A stretch of 8,712 nt of DNA from a virus (taxonomy: Duplodnaviria > Heunggongvirae > Uroviricota > Caudoviricetes), in IMG/VR virus record IMGVR_UViG_2778261639_000012; one strand, given 5' to 3'. Numbering within the stretch: the first letter of the stretch is position 1; the number at the start of each line of letters is the position of its first letter. Both the position numbers and the translations under genes were made by a program. The notes beneath the pieces were generated by a model. It did not search any database. It was given only the letters and a program-made list of their open reading frames with translations, and had not been told where the DNA came from. Below, one piece after another: positions 1 to 8,712 of the stretch.

Positions 1-167
1 CACTTCGCCTCTATCAGGCATGATGCTGAATTTCTGAATCCCATAGCATCTGGCTGTTCTCCGGTACTGGTTACAGCAACAAAGCGGTCATGAAAGCAAA
101 CCTTGAACCCGTTGCGCTTAAGGAACTTGTACGCAATCTGACAGAGTTCGTGGTGTGTTAACGCCAT
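1..167 (-). CDS. Partial CDS (5' end present, 3' end beyond window); putative PD-(D/E)xK-like nuclease-fold protein
   Basis: ATG at 167..165 preceded by AAAGGAG 6 nt upstream; frame open to window edge. N-terminus MALTHHELCQIAYKFLKRNGFKVCFHDRFVAVTSTGEQPDAMGFRNSASCLIEAK contains a D...E-x-K arrangement (PDAMGF...LIEAK) typical of PD-(D/E)xK nucleases. Family call is by eye only. Confidence 0.5.
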   Translation of the reverse strand, partial: MALTHHELCQIAYKFLKRNGFKVCFHDRFVAVTSTGEQPDAMGFRNSASCLIEAK

Positions 168-168
168 A

Positions 169-654
169 TCACTCTCCTTTGATGCGAATGCCTGTTGCAA
201 TGCTGTTTATGATGCTGTCAGTGCATGGGGTAGAAAGCTGGGCATCTCCAGCAATTTTCATGACCTCAACATCTGCATATCGAATACCGAGGTGTATCAG
301 ACCGGCTATGCCTGACTTAAGCCGAGCATTTTCCATAAATAGAACTTTTGCCCGCTGTTTTTCTGCTTCAAGCTCAACGCGCAGCTTCCCTACCGTTAGC
401 GCAATATCCTCGTTCTCCTGATCGCGGCTTTTGATGTATTGCAGGTTTCTTTCCCGTTCATCCAGCAGTGCCAGCACGGTTTCTGGTCCGGTCAGAAATT
501 TGAAGGCGTTGAGCGCATCAATATCCACACCGTAATCTTTAAGTTCCTGTTCACTTAACAAGTCATCATCAGCTGGCAACATTAACAGGCGTTCCATTGC
601 TGGAATTGCACGTTCCGCCACCTCACGCAGTGCCTGGTAATTAATTTCGCTCAC
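169..654 (-). CDS. Ead/Ea22-like family phage protein (161 aa)
   Basis: GTG start at 654 with AAGGAGG 6 nt upstream; N-terminus MSEINYQALREVAERA nearly identical to the paralog at 1720..2421; central coiled-coil segment; start overlaps upstream stop (GTGA). Confidence 0.7.
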   Translation of the reverse strand: MSEINYQALREVAERAIPAMERLLMLPADDDLLSEQELKDYGVDIDALNAFKFLTGPETVLALLDERERNLQYIKSRDQENEDIALTVGKLRVELEAEKQRAKVLFMENARLKSGIAGLIHLGIRYADVEVMKIAGDAQLSTPCTDSIINSIATGIRIKGE

Positions 655-1304
655 TGGTTGCCTCCTTTGCGAAGCTCAGCGGCGAAGGCTACTGCGTGAT
701 CATGATGTTCAAGCGTGTATGCACACTCCGCAAACATCTCCACGCCCTGCGCCCGGACTTCAGCCAGGAAAGCATCGGTGGCTGGCGTTTCCCGTGAACG
801 GTAAGACCAAACAATGTCGTCTGTTTCACTGGGTTCTTCATGAGAGCAATTTGGGCAGACAGCAGTACAACCAGCATGATCTTCTATGAGCATCTTCAGC
901 CACGAGTTCTCCTCCGCCAGCGTCACGCGACTGGCCTCCAGTTCTGCTACGCGCTGTTTTGCAGCATCCAGTTCAATCGACAATTTTTCCAACTGCTCTT
1001 TATGCTTTTTATATTCCTGATATGCGTGCCAAGACTGACCTTTGCGCACACTATCAGTGATATCAGCAACCTGCTCTGGTGTTAGCGTGGTCAGTGGCTG
1101 TGCTGGGAAAATAAGCACTTTCCCGGAATCCCAATCAAAACCAGCATGAATTGACTGAACCTCAACTGAAGGTGTTGAACCAATGCTGCCAGGCGAATGA
1201 ACAACGATCGTTACATCCATATCGCGACGATGGCTGTGGTTGTTGGACAAAATACGATTCAACAAAATACGATTCACCAACTCAGAAAATTTGGAGAATT
1301 TCAT
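651..1304 (-). CDS. Ead/Ea22-like family phage protein (217 aa; start uncertain)
   Basis: C-terminal SETPATDAFLAEVRAQG motif shared with the paralog at 1720..2421 (SETPATDAFLAEIRAEA); coiled-coil segment. ATG at 1304 has GAGG about 8 nt upstream and sits 8 nt after the upstream stop. Internal Met (MDVTIVV) is an alternative start without a Shine-Dalgarno. Confidence 0.6.
   Translation of the reverse strand: MKFSKFSELVNRILLNRILSNNHSHRRDMDVTIVVHSPGSIGSTPSVEVQSIHAGFDWDSGKVLIFPAQPLTTLTPEQVADITDSVRKGQSWHAYQEYKKHKEQLEKLSIELDAAKQRVAELEASRVTLAEENSWLKMLIEDHAGCTAVCPNCSHEEPSETDDIVWSYRSRETPATDAFLAEVRAQGVEMFAECAYTLEHHDHAVAFAAELRKGGNQ
1247..1276. repeat. Perfect 15-bp tandem direct repeat x2 (ACAAAATACGATTCA)
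   Basis: Read directly: 1247-1261 and 1262-1276 are identical. In frame within the N-terminal region of CDS 651..1304, encoding a duplicated LNRIL pentapeptide. Confidence 0.9.
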
Positions 1305-1312
1305 GCGGAGCC

Positions 1313-1723
1313 TCAGTATGTAAAATAGACAGTTGCCACGCCGTTATAGTGATCAAACGATACGGCATTTACTTCGTAGCTGGCAGGGAGCTTCGATCCG
1401 AGAACGTATCCGGGCCACGTTTTCCATGGAATTTCTCTGCGCTCACTATCGCCATATACCGTACATCCCAGAGAGCCTACAGCTTCATTAGAACGCGTGC
1501 CGCACGTTATGAATCCCAGATTTTGCTTACTGCTCTTAATGGTGATTGGGTGAACGCTGGCTGATGCATTAGCAGCACGCTGTGCCTGTTGGTTTGCGAT
1601 ATTCGCAGAGTTCGCAGCAGCTACAGCAGCCGTAGTCGCGGCGGTAGAGGCTACAATAGCTGCTGAAGCATGCACTTGTTGGATATTCACCAACAATGCC
1701 GCGACAAAAATCATCTTCTTCAC
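1313..1723 (-). CDS. Putative secreted/periplasmic protein with N-terminal signal peptide (136 aa)
   Basis: GTG start at 1723 with AAAGGAG 7 nt upstream, overlapping upstream stop (GTGA). N-terminus MKKMIFVAALLVNIQQVHA is a classic Sec signal peptide (AxA cleavage-like site), followed by an Ala/Asn/Gln-rich low-complexity linker and a C-terminal domain with two Cys. No lipobox. Confidence 0.6.
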   Translation of the reverse strand: MKKMIFVAALLVNIQQVHASAAIVASTAATTAAVAAANSANIANQQAQRAANASASVHPITIKSSKQNLGFITCGTRSNEAVGSLGCTVYGDSERREIPWKTWPGYVLGSKLPASYEVNAVSFDHYNGVATVYFTY

Positions 1724-2421
1724 TTGTCAGCTCCTTTGCGAATCTGTTCAGCCCATTCTTCAAGGGATTTCTCCGCATATTCACCGGACAGGCCATCAAT
1801 CGGGTACGGTTCATTAGCCAACTCTTCTTTCGCTGACAGAATCATGCGCGTAACGTCGAAAACTTCACGCAAAGACTTATTGATAAATCCGTGATTGAAC
1901 GCAGCAGCAAGACGGCTGGCGGTATAGTTAATCCCCTCGTTGCGTGCTTCCGCACGAATTTCAGCCAGAAAAGCATCGGTAGCTGGAGTTTCGCTGTGGT
2001 GTAGGGCATCGTTGATAATCATTGCAGCAACTCCGGCCTGCCCTGCATCCGTGACCGACACATGATCAAGAGTTACAGCCATTGCGTGTTTCAGCCCAGC
2101 GTTCTCTGCCACCAGAGCCGCGAGCTTAGTCTCAAGCGGTGCTATTCGGCACATAGCATCAATATTTGTGTCCTCCAGGCGCTTAATTTCACCAAGTAGC
2201 TCCAGTGCAACCTTTGGGTTGAATGCGGCAATATAACGAGCGTTGTTCTCTGCGTTTTTCAGTCCATCAAAGCCGGTCCATTTGATAACGTCTTCACATC
2301 GTTTATCACCGGGCGTATGCACCGCATACGTACCAGTACCCGGCGAAATAAATGCGACCCATTCGCCCTGTGTTGCCTGTTTTGCTATCTCACGCAGTGC
2401 CCGGTAATTAATTTCGCTCAC
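1720..2421 (-). CDS. Ead/Ea22-like family phage protein (233 aa from GTG; ORF track extends to 2457)
   Basis: GTG at 2421 preceded by AAGGAGG 6 nt upstream, giving N-terminus (M)SEINYRALREIAKQ, paralogous to 169..654. Contains the SETPATDAFLAE motif. The longer ORF-track start at 2457 lacks a Shine-Dalgarno and would overlap the upstream gene by 40 nt. Confidence 0.7.
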   Translation of the reverse strand: MSEINYRALREIAKQATQGEWVAFISPGTGTYAVHTPGDKRCEDVIKWTGFDGLKNAENNARYIAAFNPKVALELLGEIKRLEDTNIDAMCRIAPLETKLAALVAENAGLKHAMAVTLDHVSVTDAGQAGVAAMIINDALHHSETPATDAFLAEIRAEARNEGINYTASRLAAAFNHGFINKSLREVFDVTRMILSAKEELANEPYPIDGLSGEYAEKSLEEWAEQIRKGADK

Positions 2422-2657
2422 TGGCTGCCTCCTTTGCGGAGTTGCGCTTCGATGCACGAAAAAAAAGACTCCCGAGTATGACTGTTAAGAGCTGGTGCGA
2501 ACGCCGCGTTAAGAACGGCAGCATCACAGCCGTCATCAATATAGAGCGCAATTTTTTTCTCCAGGCGCGCTTTGGCTTCCTGCAACTGCATACCCCGGCA
2601 CGCACGCGGGATATAATCAGCAATTTGAGCGATAGCTTTTTCGTTCTGTTTAAACAT
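2418..2657 (-). CDS. Hypothetical phage protein (79 aa)
   Basis: ATG at 2657 with GAGGTGA 4-5 nt upstream; 8-nt overlap (ATGTTTAA) with the upstream gene; C-terminal ...RKGGSQ encoded by the Shine-Dalgarno of the next gene. Confidence 0.5.
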   Translation of the reverse strand: MFKQNEKAIAQIADYIPRACRGMQLQEAKARLEKKIALYIDDGCDAAVLNAAFAPALNSHTRESFFSCIEAQLRKGGSQ

Positions 2658-2936: not shown

Positions 2937-3227
2937 TTATTCCTGAATGCGCTTAAACTCGATTACCCACACCCAGGGATTAGCGTTCCAGCTTTCTTCA
3001 CCATAGATGGATTCCCACAGGTGCTGGAACGCAACCTTGGCCATTGCGAAATCCCTCTTGGGAGTAAGGAATGTTCCCGGGTGATCAGGAAGCAAACTTC
3101 CAGCAGGCGGAACGCCCTCAGCCCTTGCATCGCATTCGCTGATATCGTTCAACCGTTCAACGCGCACGTTGGTAATTTCCAACAGAATGGTGATGCCCAT
3201 CGCGGCATGTGAATTGATGGACGCCAC
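2937..3227 (-). CDS. ASCH-domain protein, C-terminal fragment (96-aa ORF; probably the 3' part of a frameshifted gene)
   Basis: C-terminus SIYGEESWNANPWVWVIEFKRI resembles the terminal beta-strand signature of ASCH proteins (compare E. coli YqfB ...DIYPGQTQFYVIEFK, recalled from memory). Starts only at a GTG with no Shine-Dalgarno, inside the 3' end of ORF 3149..3664. Confidence 0.45.
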   Translation of the reverse strand: MASINSHAAMGITILLEITNVRVERLNDISECDARAEGVPPAGSLLPDHPGTFLTPKRDFAMAKVAFQHLWESIYGEESWNANPWVWVIEFKRIQE

Positions 3228-3664
3228 CCACCATCAAACTTTTCATTCACAGTGTGAGGTTTCCAGTCGGCATCATCGGGTATCGACCATAAGCCGTAAT
3301 CACCAGGTTTTTGCTCACAACTGGCCCGATAAATCCTTGCTGCGTTCTTCTCATCGCCACGACAAAGGTTGTCGTTCCAGTCCACACTGCAACCATCTTC
3401 ATTGCCTAATATCGTCCATGTTTCACGAACCCAAATTCGATCGCCGACGATACCAAAGGGGCAATTGAAAACACTGCTTACACCATCAGCCCCGTACCAC
3501 TGAAAACCTGCACCAATTTCCCTAACCATCACTGGTGCTTCTGGACCAACTTCCGCAGGCTGATTTTTCATTATCCGCCGCGTCTGCGTTTTCCTTCCTT
3601 CGAGGATGGCTCGGACCATCTCATCGTTGAAAATCATGCCGCGCTCTTTCACTTCGCCTTTCAT
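3149..3664 (-). CDS. ASCH-domain protein, N-terminal part (171-aa ORF)
   Basis: ATG at 3664 with AAGGGGGA just upstream; N-terminal FNDEMVRAILEGRKTQTRR matches the ASCH GxKxxExR-type motif. ORF ends at 3149 in a different frame from the 96-aa ORF that carries the matching C-terminal ASCH strand. Confidence 0.6.
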   Translation of the reverse strand: MKGEVKERGMIFNDEMVRAILEGRKTQTRRIMKNQPAEVGPEAPVMVREIGAGFQWYGADGVSSVFNCPFGIVGDRIWVRETWTILGNEDGCSVDWNDNLCRGDEKNAARIYRASCEQKPGDYGLWSIPDDADWKPHTVNEKFDGGWRPSIHMPRWASPFCWKLPTCALNG

Positions 3665-3673
3665 GCATCCCCC

Positions 3674-3760
3674 TTACCCATGCGCGACGATGCCGCCAAA
3701 AGTGATAGAGAACAGCCAGAAATAGATCGCGGCCATAATGATTTTGAATGCCGTGTTCAT
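3674..3760 (-). CDS. Small hydrophobic peptide (28 aa, MNTAFKIIMAAIYFWLFSITFGGIVAHG), predicted single transmembrane helix
   Basis: Translated by hand. ATG at 3760 preceded by AGGAG with 8-nt spacing; TAA stop at 3676..3674, 9 nt before the ASCH gene start. Below the ORF-track length cutoff. Almost entirely hydrophobic/aromatic. Confidence 0.5.
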   Translation of the reverse strand: MNTAFKIIMAAIYFWLFSITFGGIVAHG

Positions 3761-3787
3761 ATTTTCAGCTCCTGTGATTGATTGGAT

Positions 3788-3820
3788 ACATGCCGCGCCT
3801 TGCGGCATGTTTTTATTTTC
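3788..3820 (+). terminator. Intrinsic-terminator-like hairpin oriented on the plus strand
   Basis: Stem ACATGCCGC (3788-3796), loop GCCTT, stem GCGGCATGT (3802-3810), then TTTTATTTTC (3811-3820). On the minus strand the hairpin is not followed by a U-tract. Confidence 0.5.
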
Positions 3821-3829
3821 ACTTTCTCT

Positions 3830-3859
3830 GTTTTAAAAATCAAGATTTATTAGAGCAAT
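3830..3859. repeat. 30-bp element GTTTTAAAAAT-N6-TTATTAGAGCAAT, copy A
   Basis: 26/30 identical to 5971-6000. Abuts the stop codon (3859-3861) of the HAD gene. Confidence 0.8.
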
Positions 3860-4365
3860 TATTGTTGATGGAGAAGCGCGTTTTCATACTCCCTGACCAT
3901 TAACGTAAGTACGCCGTGACTCCTGAAAACACGCGCCACGTCAATCTTATCTTCCAGCGCGAACGCAATTTTACTTAGACCAATTTTCTTCAGGAGATCA
4001 ATCTTTGCTGGACCGTCATTTCTGTCATCGGTGGCAGGACGCATAGATAGCAAAGGCTCAGTCCCATTTGTTACGTGCTTACGCAACCAGGCTCGTGTTT
4101 TATCCCTGGCTATCTCACAGCGCCCGGTTACAAACCAGAGGGTGTAAATGCCGGACAACTGGCGCACCATATCAATAACTGGAGTGATGGGAGCATCAGT
4201 GTCACAGGCAAGGTTAAACTCGTTCCAGTGCTCTGTTAATGCACCTTTGCCAGGTGGTGGAAGTAAATGCAGCCTGTCTTCCGTTGCCTCTGATATCGTC
4301 CCATCAATATCTACTATGACGATGTACGGACGTTCCTGGTGTGCGTGTTTATTGAAAATACTCAA
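3859..4365 (-). CDS. HAD-superfamily phosphatase-like protein (168 aa)
   Basis: Motif I DIDGT (IVIVDIDGTI) near the N-terminus, Thr motif II (WFVTGR), downstream Lys and acidic (EDKID) motifs consistent with the HAD fold; resembles phage polynucleotide 3'-phosphatase/nucleotidase domains. Only start is TTG at 4365, with GAGGAGG about 4 nt upstream. Confidence 0.6.
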   Translation of the reverse strand: MSIFNKHAHQERPYIVIVDIDGTISEATEDRLHLLPPPGKGALTEHWNEFNLACDTDAPITPVIDMVRQLSGIYTLWFVTGRCEIARDKTRAWLRKHVTNGTEPLLSMRPATDDRNDGPAKIDLLKKIGLSKIAFALEDKIDVARVFRSHGVLTLMVREYENALLHQQ

Positions 4366-4437: not shown

Positions 4438-5700
4438 TCAGCGAACGTAAATAGTGCCGCCGTTCTCTTTTTCCCATGCATCGCTACGTGCATAGCAAAC
4501 ATCGAGAAGTCTTCTTGCCGCAGTTTCCTCTAAACCCAATTCGACAACCAACTGCTCATGACGGCGGGTAACCACATCAAACAGGGTATGCAGCCCTTTA
4601 GTTGCCAGATCATCAATGAATTCCGGTTCGAACGGCAGCTCTGCATCTGCCAACATAACCTCTTGCGCCCACTCAACTCGACGGACCAATTCCGGGCGGC
4701 GGCTTTCCATCTCTTTACAGATCAATTCATGGAAGAACTCTACCCAACCTTCCGGCTGGAACTCGCGGAAAATTGCCAACGGCTGGAAGTTTGGCATCAA
4801 CCATTCGTTGATTCGGATATCAATGGCATAGCCCATGTCGCAGCAGAACTGATAAGCAAAGTCCAGCTTAGACACGATATAAGGACGCTCGTTATTGAAC
4901 TCTTTAGGCGATGAGATCCCATAAGCCAGGAGGCGCGGGAAGAAGGATATTTGCCCTAACGTCGGATGAAGTTTGCTTGCAGGGAAACGGCGCTCAGTAA
5001 TGCCATACATTTCCTTCTTGAGCGTCGCAAATTTGGCATTCTCATTAACCAGCGCGGTAACCTCTGCTTTTTTATTAGCAAATGCCACGCGCGCTTCGCT
5101 TGCATCTTTAATAGTTTTTTTGAGCTGTTGGTTAAGGTCGGCGACCTGCTTACGCAGTTCCTGTCGCTCGCTTTTAGCTTTGTTATAGCGTTTCTCAAGG
5201 TTAAAAGGATCAAGTTTCATGATCTCTTTATATTGAGATTTTAGCGTTGAAATCTGTGAGTTCCGCAGTTCAACCATCGCGGTCATTTCATTGAGTTTTG
5301 TTTCCAGCTCAATGCTTATACGTTCGGCATTATCAGCACGCTGGTTGGCGTCATGCGTCGCATCGTCGATCGCGTCCTGTTGCTGGCGTTTCAAATGTTC
5401 AATTTGCAGCTGAAGCTCTTCAATTTCTTTATCCTTCAGACCGAGATCCAACTGCATATTTTCAGCTGCATCTACCAGGGAGTTATGGCTATCAGCTTCT
5501 GCGTTATAAACATCAATAAGCTGTGCGTGAAGCATCTCCGCTGACTGAACCGCATTATCAAAAAAACGCGCTGTGAGGTCATCACAACTAACGCGGCGTT
5601 GCGCGGCCCGGATGTTCTGGATAATGGCCGGGATACCGGCATTCAGGACGTCAGGGATAGATACATTTTCGATTGATTGGTTTTGTGCTGAAGTGATCAT
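4438..5700 (-). CDS. Hypothetical phage protein, N-terminal coiled coil plus C-terminal globular domain of unknown function (420 aa)
   Basis: Long ORF; residues about 80-250 are heptad-rich and charged (EIEELQLQIEHLKRQQQ..., ELRKQVADLNQQLKK); C-terminal 170 aa rich in aromatics with no recognisable catalytic motif. Start ATG at 5700 is 1 nt after the stop of the upstream 72-aa gene. Confidence 0.7.
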   Translation of the reverse strand: MITSAQNQSIENVSIPDVLNAGIPAIIQNIRAAQRRVSCDDLTARFFDNAVQSAEMLHAQLIDVYNAEADSHNSLVDAAENMQLDLGLKDKEIEELQLQIEHLKRQQQDAIDDATHDANQRADNAERISIELETKLNEMTAMVELRNSQISTLKSQYKEIMKLDPFNLEKRYNKAKSERQELRKQVADLNQQLKKTIKDASEARVAFANKKAEVTALVNENAKFATLKKEMYGITERRFPASKLHPTLGQISFFPRLLAYGISSPKEFNNERPYIVSKLDFAYQFCCDMGYAIDIRINEWLMPNFQPLAIFREFQPEGWVEFFHELICKEMESRRPELVRRVEWAQEVMLADAELPFEPEFIDDLATKGLHTLFDVVTRRHEQLVVELGLEETAARRLLDVCYARSDAWEKENGGTIYVR

Positions 5701-5932: not shown

Positions 5933-6002
5933 ATATTGCTCTAATAAAAAACGTGATGAGTGTACATCACGTTTTAAAAATATGGAATTATTAGAGCAAT
6001 AT
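5933..6002. repeat. 15-bp perfect inverted repeat arms (ATATTGCTCTAATAA / TTATTAGAGCAATAT) flanking terminator T2; right arm is part of 30-bp element copy B (5971-6000)
   Basis: Read directly: 5933-5947 is the reverse complement of 5988-6002. 5971-6000 (GTTTTAAAAATATGGAATTATTAGAGCAAT) matches 3830-3859 at 26/30 positions. Confidence 0.8.
5943..5975 (-). terminator. Rho-independent terminator (mainly minus strand) nested within a 15-bp inverted repeat
   Basis: Stem AAAACGTGATG (5948-5958) / CATCACGTTTT (5965-5975), loop AGTGTA; on the minus strand followed by TTTTTTATT. Lies downstream of the stop of CDS 6002..6703. Confidence 0.65.
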
Positions 6003-6703
6003 TATTCTGATTCTCGCTCAAAAAATGAGCTGATAAGGGGAAGCCAATCCTCTGACACTTCGCGAGGTCGCGGTTTGCCGTGGAAAAAGATTATTCGGCA
6101 GTCTTTTGGTAATGCCCCATTCCCCCTGGAGTAACGCGCGCTCGCATATTTTGAACCAGGTTCCACAACATCGGCCTTGTAACTTACAAACCATCCTGGA
6201 TACAGATCCTGAAATGCTGGTGTATCATCGCCCATAACCTTTCGTAAGAACCCCTGGTCACCCCAACACTCAGTAGTGACACAACGAGAAATCCAACCTT
6301 CCGGATCTTGCCAGAATGAACTCCAGATATGCGCTTTAACACTATTTGGTATCCACAAGGCACCGCTGCCACGATATTGTGGATGGTAAAAATCCCTAAG
6401 CATGGTGAAGCTGGTTGGTGGATGCTCTAGGATTGGGCGTATATCACCGGCAATAACCGTGTCCAAATCCAGATAGAACAGATCATCGGTTATATCCGGT
6501 CGGAACAACTCGATTTTCGCCCACCAGCCACGGCACTTTTGCCACTGGTTGATCAATGGGACAACTTTGACGCCAGGTACATGTAAACGCTTCAGGTCTG
6601 TCAGGCAAATAATTTCATAGCCTTTTGGCAGTTGATTAACCAGCCACTGCACATCGGAAGCGTTATAGTCACCACCAGAGCGAAAAACTAAAGCAATCTT
6701 CAT
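6002..6703 (-). CDS. Putative GT-A-fold (GT8-like) glycosyltransferase with DxD motif (233 aa)
   Basis: N-terminal beta-strand [12 protein letters not shown] and DxD context [20 protein letters not shown] resemble retaining GT8 enzymes (compare LgtC ...VLYLDIDVLVRD..., recalled from memory). ATG at 6703 overlaps the phosphatase stop (ATGA) with AAGGTGA upstream. Confidence 0.5.
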
Positions 6704-7392
6704 GCTGCACCATCACCTTTCACTTTCATCAATGTCAGGTTTCCGCAAAATACGGCACCAGTGTCGATATACTGCTGATTCCAGAATGTCTTCGGGCTTT
6801 TCACCGGAGTGTGACCAAAGATAAAACGATCTGCGCCCGAAATTTCGCCACCAATATCATCCATCGAATCACTGATACGCTCGCGCGCCCAGACAACGTT
6901 GAAAAGCGGCACCTCCTTACCGAATTGGTATTCATTATCCGGATAGTCGGCATGGGCTATAACGATAGTTTCTTGCCCGGTGTTCAACTCAATGATATAG
7001 GGCAGACGCTTTACCAGCTCCACCAGCGCCCAGGCTAATATTTCCTGATCAGTGTCCAGCATGAAGAACCATTGTCCGCCATTCATTAGCCAGTTATTCA
7101 CGTTGCCATCTGGACTTAACGCATCAATCATCAGCCGCTCATGGTTCCCCATCACTGCCCTGAACCAGGGCATCTGCAATAGTTCCAGACATTCGACATT
7201 TTCAGTACCGCGATCGATAAGGTCGCCGACCGATATCAGTAAATCCTGCGCCGGGTCAAAATCCACACGATGGAGTTCGGACATCAGTCTGGTGTAGCAA
7301 CCATGCAGATCACCAACAACCCAGACATTCCTGTATTTGGTACCGTCGATACGGTGATAAATTGTGGGTGCCATCATGTATTCTTCAGCCAT
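6700..7392 (-). CDS. Serine/threonine protein phosphatase, lambda PPase / PrpA-PrpB family (calcineurin-like metallophosphoesterase)
   Basis: Conserved motifs GDLHG, GDLIDRG, GNHE and close overall resemblance to phage lambda ORF221 phosphatase ([21 protein letters not shown]...FRAVMGNHE...[14 protein letters not shown]). Real start may be the internal ATG at 7377 or 7374, matching the lambda PPase N-terminus and removing the overlap with the upstream gene. Confidence 0.85.
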
Positions 7393-8000
7393 TCTTTAAG
7401 AGTCATCTGCGGAATACCTCCCATTTTCCCGCATGAAACAACGTCAATCCGTTCACGCGCAGACTGGAATAACAAAGGCAGGTGACTTAGATTTTTTGGC
7501 GTGCCGCCGGAGTGAACGCGTGGTTCTTGTGTAGCGTCAACGCCCACCAGGGCGACATGTTTGAATCCGATATGGAAAGCCAGGTTCAGAGCGCCATATG
7601 CACTATTGCCGCTGGCAATTTCATTCTCATCTTCGCAAAGTCCGAAATGTGCGGACCAGCGCCACGCCCACCACTCGGGAGAATTCGTATTTTTTGGCTC
7701 CATGCCACGTTCAGCCACACGACGGAAGCACAGAACGCCGTCTCTGACTTCACGTTCTTTAACATCGGGTAGTGCCATGCAATAACAAACACCACGGCGA
7801 CGGCGGCCACGACCAACGCGCCGCATATTGTCTGGCGATGGATCAAGTGTGAAAAAATAAGAAGCGCGGTTCAGCCAGTCGATGGCCCCATTGACCGCTA
7901 TAATCGGCACTCCGCGCGGCGCAACAAAGTTTGCGGCGCTTGGGCCACTGCCGACGATAATAACGCGATCACTGCCTCTAAATTTATTCTTGGGAAACAT
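7374..8000 (-). CDS. DUF115/MAF-like (GT42 sialyltransferase-like / MptE-like) Rossmann-fold protein, paralog B (208 aa)
   Basis: N-terminal [14 protein letters not shown] ... [11 protein letters not shown] and later [26 protein letters not shown] match the GxGPS / G-S-x-L-x-LA-x-G-(x)n-LxGxD pattern I associate with PF01973-type proteins. ATG at 8000 with AGGAG upstream. Confidence 0.6.
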
Positions 8001-8527
8001 TGAATTGCACTGCTCCTACTTGCATTCAAAATATGTAAATCTGCGTGTTTTTTGCGGGTATCCAGGAACTGCTGTTGCCATTTTGAAATAGACACCTGCG
8101 TTGGATTCCGTAGGGCTTGAGGGTGCGCGCCATGCCAATGAAGGCCGTTTTGCAGAGAACAGTCATAGCCGACTAATACCACTACTTCAGCCCCTGATTC
8201 AGCAGCCAGACTGATAGCCTGCGCGCCGCTATTTACCCCTTCCGCCGGTCCACAATATCGCCTGTACTCCAACGAAAATGATTTCGCCGCCGCCAGGTTG
8301 GCTGTCACTTTGCGGAATCTCCCTCCCGGTATGGTGGATCCGTATTGCTTCCACCATGACAAATCACCGGCGTATAAGGCATAAATGTCATCGAACATCT
8401 GCCAGGAATTGTTAACCGCGATGATTGAACAGCCAGTTTTTTCTATAGCAGCACAGTCCTCACGAGTGAGTGACGGACCGCTACCGACACAAAAAACAGT
8501 CCTAGTCGCCCTGGGTGGTATGTTCAT
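7898..8527 (-). CDS. DUF115/MAF-like Rossmann-fold protein, paralog A (209 aa from ATG 8527; ORF track extends to 8560)
   Basis: TVFCVGSGPSLT ... IIAVNNSW and NSGAQAISLAAESGAEVVVLVGYDCS parallel paralog B. Start at 8527 chosen because it places GxGPS at the same distance from the N-terminus as in paralog B and shortens the overlap with the upstream gene; weak Shine-Dalgarno either way. Confidence 0.55.
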   Translation of the reverse strand: MNIPPRATRTVFCVGSGPSLTREDCAAIEKTGCSIIAVNNSWQMFDDIYALYAGDLSWWKQYGSTIPGGRFRKVTANLAAAKSFSLEYRRYCGPAEGVNSGAQAISLAAESGAEVVVLVGYDCSLQNGLHWHGAHPQALRNPTQVSISKWQQQFLDTRKKHADLHILNASRSSAIQCFPRINLEAVIALLSSAVAQAPQTLLRRAECRL

Positions 8528-8712
8528 TCTCAGCTGCAAATTCAGCCTCCAGGCGAGCATTCATTTCAGCGATTACAGGGTCCACTACAGCATCTGTTTC
8601 CTGTTCATTACGCGGCATGATCGATGCCAGCGATTCATAATTAGCCTTGGATGACACGACTATTCTCCCGATGTTAATGTGCGCTATATCAAATGGCGCA
8701 TATGTACTAATT
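8502..8712 (-). CDS. Partial CDS (3' end only; 5' end beyond window), hypothetical protein
   Basis: Open frame from the window edge to TAG at 8504..8502 (...VVDPVIAEMNARLEAEFAAENEHTTQGD*); overlaps the start of the next gene. No motif recognised. Confidence 0.45.
   Translation of the reverse strand, partial: ISTYAPFDIAHINIGRIVVSSKANYESLASIMPRNEQETDAVVDPVIAEMNARLEAEFAAENEHTTQGD

Follow-up and report, generated by a model that had tools for sequence, protein, structure and literature searches.

The minus strand of the stretch of viral DNA that we analysed (8,712 nucleotides; hereafter the window) carries, at positions 1313..1723, a gene for a predicted exported protein of 136 aa. The stop codon of this gene occupies 1313-1315, and its start codon is a GTG at 1721-1723, which appears as CAC on the plus strand. 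A Shine-Dalgarno sequence, AAGGAG, lies on the minus strand at 1731..1736, within the end of the upstream gene, and is separated from the GTG by a spacer of 7 nt. The GTG/VKK start is retained in homologues from other phage types, and both the Shine-Dalgarno site and the start codon are conserved. An ATG at codon 4 was considered as an alternative start and rejected: it is located 16 nt from the Shine-Dalgarno sequence, and the MKK N-terminus is conserved. The product can be divided into three parts, all encoded on the minus strand: a Sec-type (signal peptidase I) signal peptide (1667..1723, codons 1-19), a spacer rich in Ala, Ser, Thr, Asn and Gln (1526..1666, codons 20-66), and a beta-rich domain (1316..1525, codons 67-136). 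The signal peptide was delimited by its hydrophobicity, the -3/-1 rule and its conserved layout; the spacer by its composition and by its variable length and sequence in the family; and the domain by alignment, AlphaFold modelling and its dN/dS.

The coding sequence was taken from the ORF list and from the match of its product to the phrog_8805 profile (E=3.3e-87), in which residues 1-136 align with profile positions 1-136. The window protein is thus a full-length member of this family, and no differences from the profile were seen. It is identical to the RefSeq entry WP_000738195.1, a 'hypothetical protein', and its gene is an annotated CDS, with 100% DNA identity, in plasmid pTHO-010-4. The exact 136-aa sequence is present on 747 contigs, where it is labelled either "hypothetical protein" or, under the name assigned to it by UniRef, "Prophage exported protein". 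The dN/dS ratio of the whole gene, calculated pairwise against copies in other phage types, was 0.25-0.42. When the parts were compared pairwise, the ratio was 0.21-0.28 for the C-terminal domain and reached up to 0.76 in the spacer. Judging from these comparisons, the ORF at 1313-1723 is a genuine gene that evolves under purifying selection. An ORF overlapping it, at 1569..1814, was rejected as a gene; its conservation is only a by-product of DNA identity.

The first 19 residues, MKKMIFVAALLVNIQQVHA, have the n/h/c layout of a signal peptide. The n-region is MKK, in which K2 and K3 are basic, and no acidic residue occurs in residues 1-19. The h-region, MIFVAALLV, has nine residues, and the Kyte-Doolittle 8-mer maximum of 3.36 is found at residue 5. 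The c-region, NIQQVHA, is polar and ends with V17 at -3 and A19 at -1, with S20 next; cleavage is predicted between A19 and S20, giving a mature N-terminus of SAAIVAST. The n/h/c layout with an AxA-type site was found in all of the diverse homologues that were aligned (36/36), where M1 is the sole invariant residue of this region. In most of the 36, the AxA-type site lies at the aligned position, and MK(K/R/H) is retained at the N-terminus across the phrog_8805 family. A lipobox ([LVI][ASTVI][GAS]C) is absent, as residues 1-73 contain no Cys, and the sequence has no twin-arginine motif. A signal peptide was also recorded for the KLB16 homologue, in a note by an independent depositor. All of the sequence criteria that were applied therefore support the product being an exported protein with a predicted signal peptide.

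Residues 20-66, which separate the signal peptide from the domain, contain 17 Ala, 7 Ser, 4 Asn and 4 Thr. In the 36-member alignment the spacer varies, and is Ala/Asn/Gln-rich in some family members; in the homologues from T1-like phages the Ala-rich stretch is absent, and a shorter and different segment of the HDYTPERSGA type is found instead. The AlphaFold2 model of the full-length protein, built with the 36-sequence alignment, comprises a long, low-confidence helix over residues 5-55 (pLDDT 52-76) and a confident C-terminal domain. When residues 58-136 were modelled alone, a pLDDT of 90.1 and a pTM of 0.76 were obtained, and the elements were ordered as four beta strands, one helix and two beta strands. 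The protein has only two cysteines, C74 and C87, and both lie in residues 67-136. Both are invariant among the 36 aligned members, as are G70, T73, G75, P104, Y116, D124, T131, Y133, F134 and Y136. Two invariant cysteines in a small domain are in keeping with an oxidising compartment, and their occurrence together with a conserved signal peptide argues for a periplasmic, disulfide-bonded protein; from this we infer a putative C74-C87 disulfide made by DsbA.

The architecture set out in the original prediction was borne out by these results. The protein had been described as the only one in the window with a clear Sec signal peptide, and none of the other 16 ORFs that were checked encodes an N-terminus of this kind. 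The small two-Cys C-terminal domain is likewise as described. The segment in between had been called an Ala/Asn/Gln-rich flexible linker, which is apt with regard to its composition; the model gives a low-confidence helix rather than coil for this stretch. A homology and structure search on the mature domain had also been proposed, and it yielded no characterised relative in Pfam, NCBIfam, PADLOC or Foldseek against BFVD. All of the BFVD matches were members of the phrog_8805 family itself, and neither a PDB relative nor a convincing fold match was found for the domain, whose fold is treated here as unassigned.

The window is 98-99% identical to E. coli plasmids of ~85-100 kb that carry lpa, phd/doc, humD and dnaB, genes which mark these plasmids as P1-like phage-plasmids. 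A PmgS-like gene (phrog_1660) is located at 4438-5700. P1-like phage-plasmids have eight hypervariable regions, and one of these lies downstream of pmgS (PMC9603915). Going by this sequence context, the exported-protein gene is in the variable region after pmgS of a P1-like phage-plasmid, and not in the lambda setting that had been assumed. Its location between Ea22-like genes was correctly recognised. The upstream Ead/Ea22-like gene (1720..2457, minus strand; Pfam PF13935, Ead_Ea22, E=3.5e-26) ends in a TGA that overlaps the GTG of the exported-protein gene, the two forming GTGA at 1720-1723. The downstream Ea22-type gene (651..1304, minus strand; phrog_368, E=7.7e-57) starts 8 nt past the stop codon and is chimeric: residues 1-118 of its product are a phrog_6026 domain, while the rest is of the Ea22 type (phrog_368/492). 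The N-terminal part of this product has 59% identity to that of the gene following the homologue in phage Av-05, and by this sequence likeness the exported-protein gene and the downstream N-terminal module appear to form one module in some lineages.

We surveyed the 57 IMG/VR loci with a full ORF of the family, a sample dominated by E. coli. An Ea22-type gene was located upstream in 34 of them and downstream in 36, and most of the 57 loci had an overlap of 4 or 8 nt between the start of the gene and the stop codon before it. No universal partner gene was found across the contexts; only Av-05 and the window share the downstream N-terminal domain. A consensus scan, which is only indicative, found no sigma-70-like promoter upstream of the gene on the minus strand, and no terminator-like site was found on this strand at 1100-1320. 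The GC content is 0.45-0.50 across positions 1000-2000, and that of the exported-protein gene is the same as that of its flanks. Since the GTG start overlaps the upstream stop, the gene is read as part of an operon.

The breakpoints of blastn alignments, together with the annotation of a sister plasmid, define a cassette slot at 1310..1731. In the sister plasmid pCFSAN004176P_03, identity to the window is 99.4% from position 1732 onward, a DUF4752 gene replaces 1310-1731, and homology is back at 907-1309. A Mu-like prophage has only positions 1294-1737 in common with the window, at 88% identity; a lambdoid prophage shares 623-2115 at 97% identity, and the lytic phage Av-05 shares 984-1736 at 75% identity. 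These alignments directly support the view that the gene travels as a cassette of one ORF, whose junctions coincide with the ends of the gene, between early or accessory regions of unrelated enterobacterial phages. Among P1-like phage-plasmids, the gene occurs in two subfamilies. In lambdoid genomes it is located in the exo-xis region, between Ea22-like genes and the anti-RecBCD gene, kil and cIII, and in Mu-like genomes in the semi-essential early region, where a DUF2786 gene and gemA/mor flank it. It is also found in the virulent Vequintavirinae phage Av-05 and in obligately lytic T1-like siphoviruses (KW1E_UTAR, KLB16 and KLB22), where it lies directly after a cytosine methyltransferase gene and well away from the lysis genes. 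Linkage with the lysis cassette was considered and rejected, as the holins, endolysin and spanin of KW1E_UTAR are ~11 kb away.

Several of these loci have further features. In two T1-like phages (loci L004, 4248-4752, and L003, 4222-4803), three tiny genes follow the family gene, just upstream of the terminase; two of the three encode hydrophobic peptides, of 71 and 57 aa, which are probably membrane peptides. The copy in one Mu-like prophage (NZ_CP086627.1; locus L020, 7001-7411) is mixed. In the signal peptide, some of its codons are of the 'LLTITQQ' type, its spacer is identical to that of the window copy at both synonymous and nonsynonymous sites, and its domain is identical to the window copy in protein sequence with a dS of 0.26. 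This copy looks recombinant inside the gene, which suggests that exchange occurs even within the ORF. The left end of the window (1-360) is rearranged relative to sister plasmids (L001, 8001-8925, and L022, 501-1594), in which homology at 1-186 and homology from ~163 or 358 are parted by 0.6-0.9 kb of extra genes. On this alignment, the left end is probably another cassette junction in an Ea22-like gene series.

Other features were noticed elsewhere in the window. A 242-aa gene in the region 2937-3664 (minus strand) is split, by an indel after 3189, into the ORFs 3149..3664 and 2937..3227. The gene is intact in pTHO-010-4 and pCFSAN004176P_03, and the split is a frameshift due to a 1-bp deletion relative to both sister plasmids; the sequences indicate that the frameshifted gene is either a pseudogene or a sequencing error. 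It may be the 'ASCH domain-containing protein' named in another record. An ORF of 44 codons at 3674-3808 (minus strand), which is hypothetical protein WP_001312275.1 in a sister plasmid, has a strongly hydrophobic C-terminal half (Kyte-Doolittle 19-mer 2.10) and may encode a small membrane protein. A terminator-like hairpin at 3788-3810 lies on the strand opposite to this ORF. Two phosphatase genes on the minus strand, one of the HAD/PNKP type (3859-4365; PF25109, phrog_415) and one PrpA/PrpB-like serine/threonine phosphatase (6700-7392; NF008516, E=3e-81, below the curated cut-off), share an operon series with the PmgS-like gene. The ORFs 7374-8000 and 7898-8560 (minus strand) overlap by ~100 nt, and neither has an NCBIfam match; the list given in one record for the stretch 7374-8560 includes a 'motility associated factor glycosyltransferase family protein' that is not mapped to a particular ORF. 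Together with the product of 6002-6703, a DxD-containing protein of 233 aa, these ORFs may form a glycosylation-related module of the P1-like backbone.

Next, we determined the extent of the phrog_8805 family. A word-indexed search identified 55 close relatives, and an alignment-seeded search brought the family to ~100 members, distant ones included. An exhaustive HMMER profile scan of 1.84 billion representatives returned only 13 clusters at E<1e-10, and the remaining matches were of low complexity; the family is thus small. Examples are WP_000738195.1, Av-05 gp115 (AII27658.1), KW1E_UTAR QYA57202.1 and KLB16 WYD67260.1. The named hosts of the phages are Escherichia, Salmonella, Shigella, Citrobacter, Cronobacter, Rahnella and Klebsiella, and the family is limited to phages of Enterobacterales. 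The gene is carried by 97 of 5426 complete E. coli genomes, at 47 places on chromosomes and 53 on plasmids, and many of the carriers belong to pathogenic E. coli lineages, e.g., O111. Among the PHROG profiles phrog_8805 alone matched the protein, and none annotated with superinfection exclusion did. The protein had no match in Pfam, NCBIfam or PADLOC, and 30 family members searched against Pfam at E<=10 had none either. A literature search by accession numbers and PHROG id found no paper mentioning the family, and a generic search on periplasmic exclusion found nothing concerning it. The family is already catalogued as phrog_8805, flagged as exported by automated annotation and without a characterised function, and the gene is best placed among the "small exported phage accessory proteins", as a member to which no function is assigned.

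We consider it fairly probable that the gene is an exported, early-operon accessory cassette encoding a small periplasmic protein. Other readings of the locus were weighed against this one. There is next to no probability that the ORF arose by chance or is a decaying remnant with no function. The family lacks a functional annotation anywhere, and a few of its copies are truncated or frameshifted (e.g., P0054 and some partial entries), but the full-length ORF is kept in five phage lineages with a dN/dS below 0.5, its start codon and Shine-Dalgarno site have been retained, and 747 contigs carry the exact protein. This reading is already refuted by such conservation. It is rather unlikely that the protein is tethered to the membrane, with an N-terminus that is uncleaved or acts in a signal-anchor-release (SAR-like) manner and a domain at the outer face of the inner membrane; its role would then, with the same low probability, lie for example in the timing of lysis or in DNA entry, as with T4 RI or Imm. 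Tethering would agree with the single continuous helix over residues 5-55 in the AlphaFold model, with a second, weakly hydrophobic Ala/Ser/Thr-rich stretch after the h-region (Kyte-Doolittle 19-mer 1.53 at residue 19), with the hydrophobic V-I-V-type motif directly after the AxA site in most homologues, and with the record by the KLB16 depositor of a transmembrane domain as well as a signal peptide. However, the h-region spans only ~9 residues, a canonical V-x-A site is present in the polar c-region that comes after it, and the additive Hessa-scale score of residues 19-37 is unfavourable, at +3.2 kcal/mol, so that a membrane span is not favoured. In addition, the confidence of the helix is low (pLDDT 52-76), the T1-like homologues do not have the Ala-rich stretch, and the KW1E_UTAR homologue is not near the lysis cassette. 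The weakly hydrophobic Ala-rich stretch that follows the predicted cut could still allow the protein to associate with the membrane.

The original prediction saw in this locus a possible lysogenic-conversion moron. A moron, as defined by Hendrix and colleagues, is an autonomous extra gene in a phage genome with its own promoter and terminator. The gene resembles a moron in being optional and swappable, since a DUF4752 gene occupies the slot in the sister plasmid, but it lacks its own promoter and terminator, its GC content is not anomalous, and its start overlaps the preceding gene. Thus, of the four strict moron features, three were absent (promoter, terminator and a distinct base composition) and one was present (presence/absence between near-identical genomes). 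In the case of lysogenic conversion, the resident prophage or plasmid would express the protein, and the protein would alter the host surface, serum resistance or virulence, as Bor and Lom do. The patchy distribution of the gene (97/5426 complete E. coli genomes) and its replacement in the sister plasmid are consistent with such a role, as are the export of the protein by sequence criteria and the many carriers that are pathogenic E. coli such as O111; the P1-like operon could also be expressed in the lysogen. Against it stand the lack of an own promoter, terminator and GC anomaly, the translational coupling to the upstream gene, the lack of a lipobox and of similarity to Bor or Lom, the homologues in obligately lytic phages, and the early-operon location in lambdoid and Mu-like prophages, whose early operons are shut off by repressor in the lysogen. 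A lysogeny-specific conversion role is therefore unlikely, and this part of the prediction was not upheld. Very unlikely, in our estimate, is that the protein is a divergent member or mimic of the host DUF1471/YhcN proteins (BhsA, McbA, YdgH, SrfN and YjfN) that modulates envelope stress or biofilm behaviour. An hhalign comparison with six E. coli DUF1471 paralogues gave a probability of 1%, and PF07338 was not matched by any of 30 family members in Pfam at E<=10. The aligned DUF1471 sequences do not have the Cys pair of the exported protein, and, on our reading of its topology, the DUF1471 family lacks an extra beta-hairpin.

Herein, we describe how the exported accessory cassette, the reading that we prefer, might act. 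The sequence directly supports translation of the gene within a co-directional accessory operon, in which its start codon overlaps the stop codon of the gene before it. SecYEG would export the protein, with cleavage after A19, and the two cysteines would form a DsbA-made disulfide in the periplasm. There, during lytic growth, the domain would bind some envelope component of the infected cell. Two reports describe the exo-xis/ea22 regions as among the earliest to be transcribed on infection (PMC10834534, PMC8614690). Taken together, the strictly lytic carriers, the early-operon position and the early exo-xis transcription argue for a role in the infection cycle and not in the lysogen. Most plausibly, a soluble periplasmic protein that is made early acts on the envelope. 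Its specific role might be to shield the infected cell from the outside, whether by superinfection exclusion or by blocking lysis from without. This protective role, which is drawn by analogy with T4 Spackle or P1 Sim, is the leading specific suggestion and is put forward tentatively. Given that the carriers differ in the receptors that they use, the target would more likely be a general one than any single receptor. In an unlikely extension of this idea, the two-cysteine domain would be a new fold and a general periplasmic effector that either blocks the DNA entry or tail-lysozyme of a superinfecting phage or neutralises a host defence at the level of the envelope. The generality of such an effector would explain the exchange of this ORF between phages, both temperate and virulent, whose receptors are unrelated.

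To our knowledge, few periplasmic phage proteins are understood, and the main examples are Spackle, Sim, RI, Cor and Llp. The phrog_8805 family is common to P1-like, Mu-like, lambdoid, rV5-like and T1-like phages and is found on hundreds of E. coli and Salmonella contigs. A functional assignment by one experiment would thus cover a gene on hundreds of contigs, and the family offers a cheap test for receptor-independent exclusion or counter-defence at the level of the envelope.

Of the known envelope proteins of phages, Bor is a lipoprotein and Lom an outer-membrane beta-barrel, and both are expressed from the prophage as autonomous units. The exported protein resembles them as a presumed phage-borne envelope protein that is dispensable for phage growth. 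Unlike them, it lacks a lipobox, its gene has neither its own promoter nor its own terminator, and lytic phages carry it too; the comparison with Bor and Lom made in the original prediction did not extend to sequence, as no similarity to either was found with the Pfam and PHROG profiles. Cor (T1/phi80/N15) and Llp (T5) are receptor-blocking lipoproteins specific for FhuA. They too are small exported phage proteins, and members of phrog_8805 are also present in T1-like phages. In contrast to Cor and Llp, the exported protein has no lipobox and no sequence similarity to them, and the carriers of phrog_8805 have unrelated tail and receptor systems (P1-like, Mu-like, lambdoid and rV5-like). T4 Spackle (Sp, gp61.3) and P1 Sim are small phage proteins that reach the periplasm by Sec export and exclude superinfecting phage. 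The exported protein has no sequence relation to them that could be detected with PHROG or Pfam, and its predicted domain is beta-rich with a Cys pair. It shares with them a signal peptide, a small soluble periplasmic domain, which is predicted here, and a gene located outside the structural and lysis modules. The usual role of characterised proteins of this design is superinfection exclusion or protection from lysis from without.
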